Shown one piece after another: positions 35,040 through 42,056 of a stretch of DNA of 64,000 nucleotides. The position numbers and the translations under genes are program-made. Each line of letters opens with the position of its first letter. The stretch's first letter is position 1. The stretch lies in NCBI GenBank assembly GCA_021730935.1, contig JAKFYJ010000015.1, positions 6,760-70,759 of the forward strand, written 5' to 3'. The DNA comes from Elusimicrobiota bacterium. GTDB lineage: Bacteria > Elusimicrobiota > Elusimicrobia > 2-02-FULL-39-32. The notes below the pieces were generated by a model that was not told the DNA's origin, made no database searches, and saw nothing but the letters and a program-made list of their open reading frames with translations.

Positions 35040-35936
35040 CTAAAACCCAAATTGCACTTTGGCTCCCAGAGGGTTGTTCTCGGGATCTGCGAGATAGATG
35101 CTGAGGCCCGCAAAAACATCGAACCAGAAGTGGGCGGCGATGGATTGGGAGAGTTTGTAATCATTGGATTGATAGCGCCAGCCCAGATACATTCCGGCGA
35201 GAGCGGCGAAGGCGGCGTTCGTCGCAGAGGGGCCGCTTCCATTATAATGCGCGGCGCCGAAAAGGGCGGAGGCGGCGATCAAACCTTTGCGTTTTCCCCA
35301 GGCGTCTTCCCAGCCGCTTTGGATCAATCCGCGGAATATGGATTCTTCGCTGGTCGCGGCTCCAAGGGAAATGGGAATCCAATAGGCGCTGTAAACTCCG
35401 AGAGAGGGTTGGCGCGAGAAAGTGTCGCCCAGAATTCTGGTTTCGCGGATGTCCCAATAATCCCGGTTATTTTTCTCGAGGCGCGCGCCCAAATAATTGA
35501 TTCCGGCACCCAAGGCGGCAAAACCCAGGACCCAGGGGCTTGAGAGGTTGTCTTTTTTAAATGGCGAGAGAGAAAGGTCGGAAACGGTGGAACGGTCTTT
35601 TAATATTTTCAGGTCGTCGCCGGTCAAACGATATTTTTTCCTTATGAATTCGCGGTTGGAAAGATAAATCTGGATGCCGTGAATCTGCTGGGCATAAACG
35701 AAAGGGGTGTTCAGCTCACCGCCGTCTTTTTTATGGTCGACCGCAAGTCCCCAGCCCGCCATTCCGGCCGTCGCGAAAAAATATCCGATCCCTTTCGCGG
35801 TTTCTCCCTGATAAAAATATCCCCCGCCCGGGATAAGAAAACTCCACCAAAATTCTCCCTGAGGCGTTTTATCGGCGGATTTTAAAGGAGCGGCAACAAA
35901 AATAAAAACAAATGCTAGAAATGCTTTGCGAGCCAT
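35040..35936 (-). CDS. CPBP family intramembrane protease, last gene of the bio cluster
   Basis: [21 protein letters not shown]; signal peptide; overlaps the bioD stop. Confidence 0.8.
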
Positions 35937-36589
35937 TTGGCGAGAACCGTGCCGCGCAACGTCTCCGCGATCAGGTCAGGGCTGTCGGCAAAATTCGGAG
36001 TCTCAGGAAGCATCGCCAAAACGGGAATTTTCTTTTCCTTGAAAAACTTGAGGCCGCTTTGGCACGCAAGGTCTTCAGGGTCAAAGAAATTCAAAACAAT
36101 TCCGATCACGCTTATCTTTTCTTTTTTCAGCGCCTCCAAAGTGAGGAGCGTGTGGTTGATGGTCCCAAGTTTCGCCGAAGCCACCACGAGCGCGGGCAAT
36201 TTGAATCTCCGGATAAGAGACGCGACATCCTCATTTTTCGTGAGGGGAACTCGCACGCCGCCCACGCCTTCCACCACCATCCCCGCGTGTTTGCGGCTGA
36301 GGTTTTCATATTTTTTAGTGAGCCCCGGCAGATCAATTTTTCGTTTTTCAATCATCGCCGCTTCATAGGGCGCGAGAGGGTTCGCGAGATAGATCGGGTT
36401 TATTTCCTCAAGCGTTTCCAAAACATCTCCCGCCTGCCTCAAAAATTCCGCGTCTTCCTGACCGCCGGAAGCGATGGGTTTCATCACGCCGATATTTTTT
36501 CCCTTTTCCTTAAGAAATCTTGCGATGCCGGCCGCGACAATGGTTTTTCCAACGCCCGTTCCCGTCGCTGTGACGAAAAGGCCCTTCAT
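35915..36589 (-). CDS. bioD: Dethiobiotin synthase
   Basis: [34 protein letters not shown]. Confidence 0.95.
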
Positions 36590-37728
36590 GACGCCACCGA
36601 AAAATTTTCAGCCATTAATTTTGACACGAGTTGAACCTCCTCAAAGGTATGTTCACTGGAAATTGAAAATCTCAGACGGCATTCGTTCTTGGGCACCGTC
36701 GGAGGGCGGATGGCCGGGACACAAATGCCATGAGCTTTCAGGTCCTCCGACATTCTCAAAGCGCCTTCCGCGCTCCCGGTCCAGAAAGGCACGATGGGGG
36801 TGGCGGTTTCCTTGAGCAGTTTGGATTGCTCCTTAAAATTCGTCTTGAAATCATTTTGCATCGTCCGAGAGAGGCCCATGAGTTTTTCCCGCGTTTCCGG
36901 TTCACTTTTTATTAATTTTATGGATTCCAGAGCCGCGGCGCAATTGGCGGGAGAAAGGGCTGTGGTGTATATAAACGAACGGGCTTTGTTGATGAGAAGA
37001 TCAATCAAATCTTTTGAGCCGCAGACGAACCCACCTTGAGAGCCCAGGGCTTTGGAAAGGGTTCCCACCACGATCTCGGCCTGCCCCAGAACTCCGAAAT
37101 GTTCCAACGCACCGATGCCGCTTTTTCCCAAAACGCCCGTCGCGTGAGCGTCGTCGATCATCGTCCAGATGCCGTGTGTTTTTGCCAACCCCAAAATTTC
37201 AGATAATGGCGCCAAATCTCCGTCCATGGAAAAAAGCGAGTCGGTCACGATCAGCCGCTTTGAATAATTTCTCGTGCGGTGCAAAATTTTCTCAAGAGAC
37301 TCCACAGATGCGTGTTCATAAACAAACGGCCTGGCGCGCGACAATTTGACCGCATCCCACAATGACGCGTGGTTCAGCTCATCCATAATGACGGCGTCGC
37401 CTTCGCCCAGAATCGCTGTGATCACTCCCAAATTCGCCATAAATCCCGTCGGAAAAAGCAAAGAAGATTCAGACTGCTTGAATTGCGCCAAAGCTTCCTC
37501 AAGTTCCCGATGAATGTCCGTCGTTCCTGAAATCAGACGTGAAGCGCGTCCCCCTGTGCCATATTTTTTTATGGCGTCCTGAGCGGCCTGAGCAACCTTG
37601 GGATGATGGGAATATCCCAGATAATCATTGGTGGAAAAATTTATTTTATAGGAAGCCTTTGAGGAAACATCCCGCCAGAGATTTTTCTCTTTTATCGACG
37701 ACAATTCCCGTTGGATATGTTCGTTCAT
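36586..37728 (-). CDS. bioF: 8-amino-7-oxononanoate synthase
   Basis: [45 protein letters not shown]; start at MNEHI. Confidence 0.93.
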
Positions 37729-40635: not shown

Positions 40636-42021
40636 TCATCCGCCTTTGGGCTTTCCGATTTTTTCGTAACCCTTTTCGACATAATTCGTCAAATAATTTT
40701 TTGAATACGCATAATTGGGATCAAGCTTAAGTGAATTTTCAAAAGCCATTTTTGATTTATCCAGGTATTCGACGCGGGACTCATGCGCGGTCCATAAAAT
40801 CCAATATGCCGCCCCCAAACCGGCAAAATACGACGGCTCAGTCGGATCAAGTTCAACCGTTCTTTGATAAAGGGCGGCCGCATCTTCATATTTGCCGATC
40901 GAATAGGCATATGTGCCTGATTCATAAAACGCCGTTATCCAATTGCCCGTTGCGATTCCCACAAGGTTAAATTTCAAAAGTTCTTTCATTTGATCCAAAG
41001 CCGCGTCCGGCTTTTTTGCCTGAGTCGCGATTTGCACATAACGGAATCGGTTCCTCAGGTCATTGGGAAATGTTGAAAAATAAATTTGATAGGCTCCCTC
41101 AATGTCTTTCCACACATTATCCTGGCTCAAATATTTTGCTTCAGCGGGTTTGTCCTTCCCGGCCGCCAGCCAGAAAGCGCTTTCAATCTCAGAATGTGTT
41201 TCAGGAATGATCAAATAAAGCGCAGGATGGCGAAGGGCGTCTTTGCGGCACTCCTCAGCGAAATCAAGCATCTGTTCAGTCGAGCCCCCCCATCTGGGCT
41301 GCAAATAATTCAACTTGATGAAACAGGCGTTTAAGTTCCCCGGATCGGAGGCCATGGCTCTTTGAAAGTATTTTTCTTTATCTTTATAGGGACGGTTCTG
41401 TCCCAAAGCGACCGTCATCATATAACAGGATGAATACGGATTGTTTTTGTTTAAGCGGTAAGATTCTTCCAGGTCTTCTTCGGCCAGTTTCAGTCGCTTC
41501 ATGAAAAGTTTCCAGCCGACTTTGGAAACGTTCTGCGCAAAACTATACCCCCGCGCCTCCCAAGCATAGTGCACATAAAATCCCCCTCGGACCAGAAACG
41601 GAACATGAGAACCGGCGGACTTATCGCACCACTCATTCAGGGTTGAAAGAATTTCCGACACTTTCATTTTAGACACTGTTTTCACATAGTCCTCAGAAAG
41701 CGCTTCCAATAAACGATCAAGGATATTCATTGAATTCCTGTCGCCGCCTCGCGCCAGGTTCAGCAACCGCTCAACTTCCCGTTCCACTGCAGAAAAATCT
41801 TTTTGGATATACAGCGTTTTTATCCAGGGCGTAAAATCATAGCTTTGAACAACGATCAATGGCGCTGGGTCGGCGGCGGTCGGGGTTGTGACCATTTTAG
41901 CCAGATCAGGCGCATGTTTAGGGAGTTGGTATTCGAACTTGCGCAGCATCCCCCTGTTGGCATATATTCCGGCAGATAGAACCGCGAACAACAATGCGAG
42001 CAAAATAAATAATCGTTTCAT
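40636..42021 (-). CDS. Exported/anchored DUF4034-like protein with TPR repeats
   Basis: N-terminal hydrophobic leader; YAWEARG..FA, YLQPRWGGS..M..FA; C-terminal TPRs; GGAGG SD. Confidence 0.7.
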   Translation of the reverse strand: MKRLFILLALLFAVLSAGIYANRGMLRKFEYQLPKHAPDLAKMVTTPTAADPAPLIVVQSYDFTPWIKTLYIQKDFSAVEREVERLLNLARGGDRNSMNILDRLLEALSEDYVKTVSKMKVSEILSTLNEWCDKSAGSHVPFLVRGGFYVHYAWEARGYSFAQNVSKVGWKLFMKRLKLAEEDLEESYRLNKNNPYSSCYMMTVALGQNRPYKDKEKYFQRAMASDPGNLNACFIKLNYLQPRWGGSTEQMLDFAEECRKDALRHPALYLIIPETHSEIESAFWLAAGKDKPAEAKYLSQDNVWKDIEGAYQIYFSTFPNDLRNRFRYVQIATQAKKPDAALDQMKELLKFNLVGIATGNWITAFYESGTYAYSIGKYEDAAALYQRTVELDPTEPSYFAGLGAAYWILWTAHESRVEYLDKSKMAFENSLKLDPNYAYSKNYLTNYVEKGYEKIGKPKGG

Positions 42022-42022
42022 A

Positions 42023-42056
42023 TTGTCAACCTCCATTGGCGCCTCAAGGTTGACAA
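42023..42056. promoter_or_regulatory. BirA (biotin repressor) operator
   Basis: Perfect TTGTCAACC-N16-GGTTGACAA; the inverted repeat extends to 12 bp; lies directly upstream of the bio gene string. Confidence 0.85.

Follow-up and report, generated by a model that had tools for sequence, protein, structure and literature searches.

A ketoreductase-ketosynthase pair in a predicted BirA-controlled biotin operon of Elusimicrobiota as a candidate route to pimelate

We analyzed a 64,000-nucleotide stretch of the genome of an Elusimicrobiota bacterium (GenBank assembly GCA_021730935.1, contig JAKFYJ010000015.1, positions 6,760 to 70,759; hereafter, the window), in which a biotin operon encodes, between bioB and bioF, a FabG-like ketoreductase (KR) and a FabF-like ketosynthase (KS). 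This pair very probably makes the pimelate moiety of biotin. We also favor, with more reserve, the narrower proposal that it would yield pimeloyl-acyl carrier protein (pimeloyl-ACP) with a free ω-carboxylate, starting from a malonyl primer and passing through two rounds of elongation served by the housekeeping ACP, FabZ, and enoyl reductase. The evidence comes from the gene order and its regulatory signal, from the paralogy of both enzymes with a separate housekeeping set, from the clade and invariant residues that mark them, and from a phyletic pattern that is complementary to that of BioC.

Operon organization and predicted control by BirA

The operon consists of seven open reading frames (ORFs) on the minus strand, spaced by a gap of 6 nt, a gap of 0 nt, or overlaps of 4 to 22 nt, in line with the string of genes no more than 6 nt apart described in an earlier reading made from the sequence alone (the sequence-only reading). 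In the order of transcription, the features are as follows.

42023..42056, no strand assigned: predicted BirA-type operator, TTGTCAACC-N16-GGTTGACAA, from a pattern search
40636..42021 (longest start 42036), minus strand: first ORF, TPR/DUF4034 protein with a signal-peptide-like N terminus (DUF4034, 32 bits, cut-off 21.3)
39600..40682 (possibly starting at the later ATG, 40634), minus strand: bioB, biotin synthase (TIGR00433, 399 bits, cut-off 225)
38859..39593, minus strand: bio-linked FabG-like ketoreductase (KR), 244 aa (TIGR01830, 252 bits, below the cut-off of 297.75)
37725..38858, minus strand: bio-linked FabF-like ketosynthase (KS), 377 aa (TIGR03150, 308.2 bits, below the cut-off of 493.75)
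36586..37731, minus strand: bioF, 8-amino-7-oxononanoate synthase (TIGR00858, 438.9 bits, cut-off 426.45)
35915..36589, minus strand: bioD, dethiobiotin synthase (TIGR00347, 162 bits, cut-off 83.3)
35040..35936, minus strand: CPBP/Rce1-like membrane protein (PF02517, 48.8 bits), overlapping the end of bioD by 22 nt

The palindrome at 42023-42056 is perfect and is the only match in the window at up to two mismatches; none of 100 shuffled sequences contains one. When the whole 2.7-Mb assembly was scanned (96 contigs; spacers of N13 to N18; up to three mismatches), every other site had at least two mismatches. As a control, the same pattern recovers bioO of E. coli, likewise with an N16 spacer (L132; L, C, and G numbers are our codes for loci, contigs, and genomes), and the earlier identification of the palindrome as a match to the BirA operator stands. 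The genome encodes a BirA of 322 aa with HTH_11 and BPL domains, and both features of a BirA regulon are present, namely inverted TTGTNAACC half-sites upstream of bio genes and a BirA with an N-terminal helix-turn-helix. The whole gene string is most likely a BirA-repressed biotin operon, as far as regulation can be predicted from such signals.

The palindrome heads the operon, as the sequence-only reading had it, but rather than simply preceding the genes it overlaps the start codon of the longest form of the first ORF (42036), together with the ribosome-binding site. Its right half-site holds a -35-like TTGACA, the only candidate that a promoter scan gave for the operon, with a -10 element that would start transcription inside that ORF. 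At the other end, a consensus promoter at 35015-34988, past the CPBP gene, belongs to the genes that follow, which encode a Rieske protein and cytochrome b, and the operon therefore ends after the CPBP gene, which is probably cotranscribed with it. The genome's bioA stands alone on contig C10, and the palindrome scan found no operator near it. The sequencing runs listed as containing the stretch are four DNA runs of one study; no RNA run is listed.

The same signal recurs in related loci. Thirty operator-like palindromes (up to two mismatches) occur in 98 loci (1.18 Mb), versus 2.7 in mononucleotide shuffles, and 25 sites lie at most 233 bp upstream of bioB. Since 19 of these 25 head operons of the KR/KS type, the pair is part of the predicted BirA regulon in many lineages.

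Two enzymes distinct from the housekeeping set

The assembly, which is 95.5% complete and is placed in Elusimicrobia/Elusimicrobiota by the names on its closest database homologues, carries a plsX-fabH-fabD-fabG-acpP-fabF-rnc set on contig C27, with every member above its NCBIfam cut-off. The operon copies are thus not the only fabF and fabG of the organism: the housekeeping enzymes reach 632 bits (FabF; cut-off, 494) and 337 bits (FabG; cut-off, 298), while the bio-linked enzymes, at 308 and 252 bits, fall below these cut-offs and are only 34% (KS) and 38% (KR) identical to their housekeeping counterparts.

Although the KS is short, as noted from the sequence, its catalytic residues C136, H269, and H306 align with C163, H303, and H340 of E. 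coli FabF, and K301 (Lys335) and F365 (Phe400) are also kept. At the position of the FabF back-gate residue I108, however, the KS has Lys99, within an S-x-S-K-P motif; Gly179 stands at R206, and in the MAFFT alignment the KS has no counterpart to E. coli N117-V134, a loss of about 18 residues. The AlphaFold2 model (pLDDT 95.1) finds its best fold matches in FabF crystal structures (TMq 0.92, 31 to 33% identity). In a maximum likelihood tree of 109 sequences, 33 bio-linked KSs lie on one side of a branch with an SH-like approximate likelihood ratio (SH-aLRT) support of 100, opposite FabB and 75 housekeeping FabF sequences, a set mostly from other phyla among which the genome's own FabF falls. 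That bio-linked copies might form a clade of their own, and that the acyl pocket might contain a basic residue, were both raised by the sequence-only reading, and both are borne out.

The positions separating the two groups, in E. coli FabF numbering, are G107S and I108K (100% of the 33 bio-linked KSs), R206G (97%), A207V, and N396L, whereas position 108 in the 75 housekeeping sequences is Ile (69), Met (3), or Val (2). When 15 further bio-linked KSs are added, Lys108 is found in 48/48 and Gly206 in 45/48, with Cys163, His303, Lys335, and His340 in all 48 and Phe202 and Phe400 in 47. The back-gate Lys is also present in 119 of the 120 best database homologues, all of which have the Cys-His-His triad. 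The KS therefore shares with E. coli FabF its fold, the triad, Lys335, the gating Phe400, and the back-gate Phe202, but E. coli FabF has neither the I108K, G107S, R206G, and N396L changes nor the deletion, and the hydrophobic I108-F202 back gate is not preserved.

In FabF, this I108-F202 gate is described as lying at about C7-C8 of the bound chain, and an I108F change restricts the enzyme to short chains, while R206 contacts Asp56 of ACP to flip hydrophobic chains out of the carrier (PMC9006962). The KS pocket would by comparison be short and end in a positive charge suited to an ω-carboxylate, and chain flipping may be dispensable for a polar acyl group.

In the partner KR, the catalytic residues Ser138, Tyr151, and Lys155 are kept in 51/51 bio-linked sequences. 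The window KR bears the marks of its clade: His188 (I184 in E. coli FabG), Ser241-Arg242 (G239-G240), and Phe at R172. In 48 of the 51, His replaces I184 within a PGF-I motif and a C-terminal Ser-Arg replaces Gly239-Gly240; R172 is Phe in 39/51, and R129 is Lys or Arg in 45/51. We take R172 and R129 to be the ACP-docking residues of FabG. We suggest that the new His and Arg of the KR may meet the carboxylate of the substrate. Given the scores below the curated cut-offs and the separate clade and changed gate of the KS, the bio-linked enzymes are, judged by their sequences, not FabF or FabG in the curated sense.

The remaining enzymes for such a route are encoded elsewhere. As already remarked in the sequence-only reading, the window has no ACP, dehydratase, or bioA, and no PP-binding match was found within its 64 kb; these genes stand on contigs C27/C23, C23, and C10, respectively. 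The genome has a single fabZ, on C23, and a FabI-like short-chain dehydrogenase/reductase on C33; no FabK was found. Its carrier proteins are one true ACP (acpP, C27) and, as the only other candidate, a weak ACP-like ORF (PP-binding, 21.4 bits) that follows an acyl-AMP-ligase fragment at the start of a contig (C23:1-1227, L017).

The absence of bioC, bioH, and bioW, first noted for the window, extends to the genome, within its 95.5% completeness. The best match to BioC reaches 62.9 bits (cut-off 185) and the best to BioH 36.9 bits (cut-off 207); BioW has no match, and neither BioG nor a BioI-type P450 was found (the diiron-enzyme BioE, the newest route known, described in 2025, was not searched for). 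Likewise, there is no BioZ-like gene, that is, no second FabH-like KAS III enzyme (3-ketoacyl-ACP synthase III) linked to bio genes. Inspection of the candidates led to their rejection: the best BioC-like ORF, on C15, is a UbiE-type methyltransferase in an unrelated neighborhood; the best BioH-like matches are generic hydrolases, the one on C14 being fused to VanY; and the one KAS III-like ORF besides fabH, located on C40, encodes a type III polyketide synthase in an unrelated cluster. The last of these, with a methyltransferase and an FAD-binding enzyme in a row (L133:4037-6872), has the appearance of a small alkylresorcinol- or pyrone-type cluster.

Distribution of the pair relative to BioC

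Searches of public genomes, taken as one genome per species, returned 80 KS-related loci. Six, from Elusimicrobia and candidate division FCPU426, are true relatives at 39 to 48% identity; each of them has the order (bioB)-KR-KS-bioF-bioD, with KR-KS between bioB and bioF or beside bioF, and with bioA after bioD in four; the other 74 are housekeeping fabF genes without a bio neighbor. This placement of KR-KS is kept over about 26 genus codes. Only FabF-level matches to the KS came from a 151-genome search centered on Myxococcota and from a tblastn search of 72,556 plasmid records (at most 36% identity), and the ESM Atlas yielded generic ketosynthase clusters only.

Within the phylum, the same 201 Elusimicrobiota genomes were surveyed throughout. 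bioB is found in 79 of them. At E≤1e-68, the KS is found in 22 genomes, 21 of the 79 with bioB and 1 of the 122 without (G164, where bioF stands beside the KS); this is a lower bound, since divergent KSs in genomes of family codes f12, f14, and f22 appeared only once their loci were fetched. Because Kbl-like paralogues score about 400 bits, a bioF survey at E≤1e-95 is too loose (195/201 genomes match), and only its 44 above-cut-off matches are useful. BioC is found at E≤1e-30 in 13 genomes, in 9 of them above the cut-off; all 13 have bioB, and their BioC genes adjoin other bio genes. BioW is found in 0/201.

In the fetched loci, the KS adjoins bio genes in 26 of 30 Elusimicrobiota bio loci. 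KS and KR together adjoin bioB in 2 of 36 further bioB loci, with KR alone in 2 more. Of 19 further bioF loci, 14 contain the KS within the stretch fetched around bioF (immediately next to bioF in 13 and about 5 kb from it in L177); these 14 are mostly from one genus of 1.0- to 1.3-Mb genomes whose bioB is located elsewhere. Taken together, the KS is present in no fewer than 45 of the 79 bioB carriers; another 4 have only the KR in the fetched stretch, and 13 have BioC. KR/KS and BioC share no genome and no genus code, although both types occur in different genera of family code f12. Because related genomes are not independent, we regard this exclusivity as a pattern and not as a statistic. 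None of these clusters appears to bring its own carrier or dehydratase: the housekeeping ACP, used as a tblastn query, had no match in 30 related bio loci, and none of the additional ORFs in related clusters matched a dehydratase in Pfam.

The closest known counterpart is the extended bio cluster of Desulfovibrio, represented by D. vulgaris DVU2558-DVU2565 and DVU1220 (Rodionov 2004, PMC545781; Trotter 2023, PMC10102598). It was predicted as a pimelate route in 2004 (PMC545781), and in 2023 random barcode transposon-site sequencing (RB-TnSeq) showed that biotin-free growth depends on its KS, KR, ACP, and FabZ-like genes (PMC10102598). The sequence-only reading had described this route as a proposal; with the RB-TnSeq data it is no longer only that, although its support is genetic and not biochemical. 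Both clusters have a FabF-like KS and a FabG-like KR inside a bio operon preceded by a BirA site, a likeness of gene content, and both occur in genomes without bioC, bioH, and bioW. However, the Desulfovibrio cluster has a dedicated ACP and two FabZ-like genes, whereas the window and every related locus examined have KS and KR only. The Desulfovibrio route also needs a nitroreductase-like gene (DVU1220 or clustered analogues). Such a gene, recalling those of Desulfobacterota bio clusters, stands 1.3 kb after bioF in one related locus (L107:8388-9044), and as a tblastn query it found no homologue in the window genome at E≤1e-4. The ranges differ as well: the module of the window type occurs in Elusimicrobiota, FCPU426, and Firestonebacteria, and the published range of the Desulfovibrio type is Desulfobacterota and Chrysiogenetes (PMC10102598). 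The KR-KS module is best read as a two-gene variant of the Desulfovibrio-type cluster, as judged from gene content. By this analogy, it would work like that route, although two features that define the latter, an ACP of its own and FabZ-like genes, are missing here. Our literature search found no paper on a KR-KS module in Elusimicrobia or on a lysine-gated bio ketosynthase, only the Desulfovibrio papers.

Two further arrangements in Elusimicrobiota bear on the make-up of these clusters. In two genomes of genus code g46, a second KS of more FabF-like sequence (31 to 32% identical to housekeeping FabF) stands a few kilobases from bioF together with a FabG-like gene and an ACP-like ORF (L188:1768-5910, minus strand; L189:9462-13740), which could be an ACP-containing variant nearer the Desulfovibrio layout. 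In operons of the f12 family, a DUF5672 protein of 256 to 279 aa is encoded between KS and bioF (L115:7701-8474; L119:4516-5316, minus strand; L121:3883-4653, minus strand; L122:5394-6179; L123:3897-4736, minus strand; L189:6221-6922), and it may be a further uncharacterized component of the route in this lineage.

The genes at the two ends of the window operon differ from its core. The seven-gene string is present as first described, but its TPR/DUF4034 and CPBP members are peculiar to the window operon: tblastn searches of related bio loci turned up a homologue of neither. Large TPR proteins as such are nevertheless recurrent inside or at the head of bio operons. A TPR protein of 562 to 595 aa stands between KS and bioF in five loci (L102:5015-6718; L103:3269-4975; L112:4785-6503; L108:3813-5501, minus strand; L127:1387-3174), with a PMT_2 domain in all but L127, and unrelated TPR proteins precede bioB in the window (40636-42021) and in L018:3814-5655. 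Besides these TPR/PMT_2 and DUF5672 genes, Fic genes are among the unrelated-looking inserts in related operons. Divergent from the operator region, the window has an ORF of 810 aa (42132-44564, plus strand) with no Pfam match at E≤1e-4.

Proposed route, alternatives, and significance

We propose that the KS acts as a condensing enzyme of the KAS II type, its Cys-His-His triad being intact and its acyl pocket short, in which Lys takes the place of the hydrophobic Ile108 at the back gate. This Lys would cap the pocket and pair with the free ω-carboxylate of a short dicarboxylic acyl primer, first malonyl and then glutaryl. Two rounds of condensation with malonyl-ACP would give 3-ketoglutaryl-ACP and 3-ketopimeloyl-ACP, and the partner KR would reduce these ω-carboxy 3-ketoacyl-ACPs. 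Dehydration and enoyl reduction would be left to the single housekeeping FabZ and the FabI-like reductase, and the carrier would be the housekeeping AcpP, given that related clusters contain neither an ACP nor a dehydratase. BioF, BioA (encoded elsewhere), BioD, and BioB would then complete biotin. The critical barrier would lie in the condensing step, and perhaps also in the reduction of the short 3-ketoglutaryl intermediate; a dedicated KS and KR would remove it, and the housekeeping ACP, FabZ, and enoyl reductase could do the rest.

The sequence-only reading had proposed that the FabF/FabG paralogues elongate a dicarboxylic primer without methyl-ester masking. The clade, the pocket Lys, and the failure to find BioC, BioH, or BioW lend this proposal support, whereas its chemistry is what we infer: which substrate and primer are used, that the carboxylate is free, how many rounds take place, and that FabZ, FabI, and AcpP are supplied by the housekeeping set. 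The BioZ route offers a precedent, in that E. coli FabG, FabA, and FabI are reported to turn the free-carboxyl 3-ketopimeloyl-ACP made by BioZ into pimeloyl-ACP (PMC7645780). The same source predicted that the BioZ pocket would hold, at its far end, a basic residue to suit the free carboxylate (PMC7645780); according to a later account of BioZ structures, the first candidate residues were not confirmed (PMC12625853).

Several points weigh against the malonyl-primed, free-carboxylate proposal. The carboxylate of a malonyl primer (C3) would fall well short of a gate at C7-C8, and Lys99 therefore fits a C5 glutaryl primer better; its placement in the pocket itself rests on the alignment to E. coli FabF and on the high-confidence fold. 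Possible esterase or methyltransferase genes in single clusters (L109, L108, and L020) leave room for a masked intermediate. As for the phyletic argument, the sampled genomes include related ones that are not independent, 17 of the 79 bioB carriers are unclassified for their pimelate route, and four clusters have the KR without a KS in the fetched stretch: L118 (G158; order bioB-KR-bioF-bioD-bioA), L162 (G288, at a contig end), L168 (G328), and L188 (G214). Genus code g40, whose clusters have the order bioB-bioD-bioA (for example, L141 in G174 and L151 in G218), contributes six of the unclassified genomes; BioC is found in the other three of its nine bioB carriers sampled.

The main rival is a single elongation of the BioZ kind, to which the position of the Lys is rather better suited, since a gate at about C7-C8 would favor a C5 over a C3 diacid. 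The KS would condense a ready-made glutaryl thioester (on ACP or CoA, for example from amino-acid catabolism) with malonyl-ACP once, the KR would reduce the 3-ketopimeloyl-ACP, and housekeeping enzymes would finish, with no malonyl primer involved. BioZ, the glutaryl-CoA:malonyl-ACP condensing enzyme of alphaproteobacteria, is reported to do exactly such chemistry with a KAS III fold (PMC7645780). It resembles the KS in being a condensing enzyme recruited to biotin, in taking a primer with a free ω-carboxylate, and in bypassing BioC and BioH, but it differs in its FabH fold, in its CoA primer, and in needing no partner KR. Further points on this side are the loss of the canonical ACP-contact arginine from both enzymes (R206 to Gly in the KS, R172 to Phe in the KR) and, in L018, the closest public relative, the presence of saccharopine-dehydrogenase-family and aldehyde-dehydrogenase genes directly after bioD (L018:11217-13932), which could bear on a lysine-derived glutaryl primer or could be polyamine genes. 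These dehydrogenase genes are, however, found in that locus only; no source of a glutaryl thioester was identified in the genome, no CoA transferase or ligase recurs in related clusters, and KAS II enzymes normally take acyl-ACP primers. Moreover, the housekeeping FabG is reported to suffice in the BioZ route (PMC7645780), which would leave the dedicated KR unexplained. On balance, we consider a single elongation unlikely.

A route through a masked intermediate seems to us still less probable. The pair would here elongate an esterified or otherwise masked malonyl-ACP in the manner of BioC-BioH, with a nonorthologous methyltransferase and esterase encoded elsewhere. Candidates for such enzymes do exist: an LCM-family methyltransferase gene follows bioA in L020:12448-13305, with a 65% identical homologue in the window genome (C5:72392-73240), an α/β hydrolase is encoded between bioD and bioA in L109:343-1221 (minus strand), and a GDSL hydrolase between KR and KS in L108:6622-7800 (minus strand). 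Yet each of these extra genes occurs in one examined locus and not across the clade. The BioC-BioH route is like the one proposed here in forming pimeloyl-ACP by elongation of the fatty-acid type, and the two types are found in sister genera of family f12, but it masks the carboxylate as a methyl ester and employs the housekeeping KS and KR; a masked substrate would be within reach of the housekeeping FabF and FabG, as it is in E. coli, with no need for a dedicated KS whose pocket bears an invariant Lys. The pair never co-occurs with BioC, and neither BioC nor BioH was found in the window genome.

That the two genes have no part in pimelate synthesis and travel with the bio genes as an additional set for elongating fatty acids or polyketides (serving, for example, a special lipid) is very improbable: both proteins are bona fide KS and KR enzymes with intact catalytic residues, and unrelated inserts (TPR/PMT_2, DUF5672, and Fic) are common in the operons of these phyla, but the conserved position at bioB-bioF or beside bioF, the operator in front, the near confinement of the KS, at the strict threshold, to bioB-positive genomes, its exclusivity with BioC, and the lack of any other pimelate route among those searched for in the genome all speak against a mere passenger.

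The pimelate arm is the least settled part of the biotin pathway, with five unrelated solutions known, and for the Desulfovibrio type, which takes six or more genes, the evidence consists of transposon fitness data only. The operon described here narrows the problem to two genes and a marker that can be mutated, Lys99 at the FabF back gate. If our proposal is correct, it would provide a compact module, free of methyl esters, for the production of biotin or pimelate. Biotin auxotrophy as predicted from the genomes of Elusimicrobiota and similar lineages would then have to be corrected as well, since under current rules genomes with no BioC, BioH, BioW, or BioZ are scored as unable to make biotin. 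More tentatively, a lysine-gated KAS II and a matched ketoreductase may suffice to turn ordinary fatty-acid synthesis into a free-dicarboxylate route to pimeloyl-ACP. Such a route would be the old "three malonates" one, set aside at one time for its implausible chemistry, and it may be the main start of biotin synthesis in the biotin-making Elusimicrobiota and in several other uncultured phyla, replacing BioC-BioH genus by genus.

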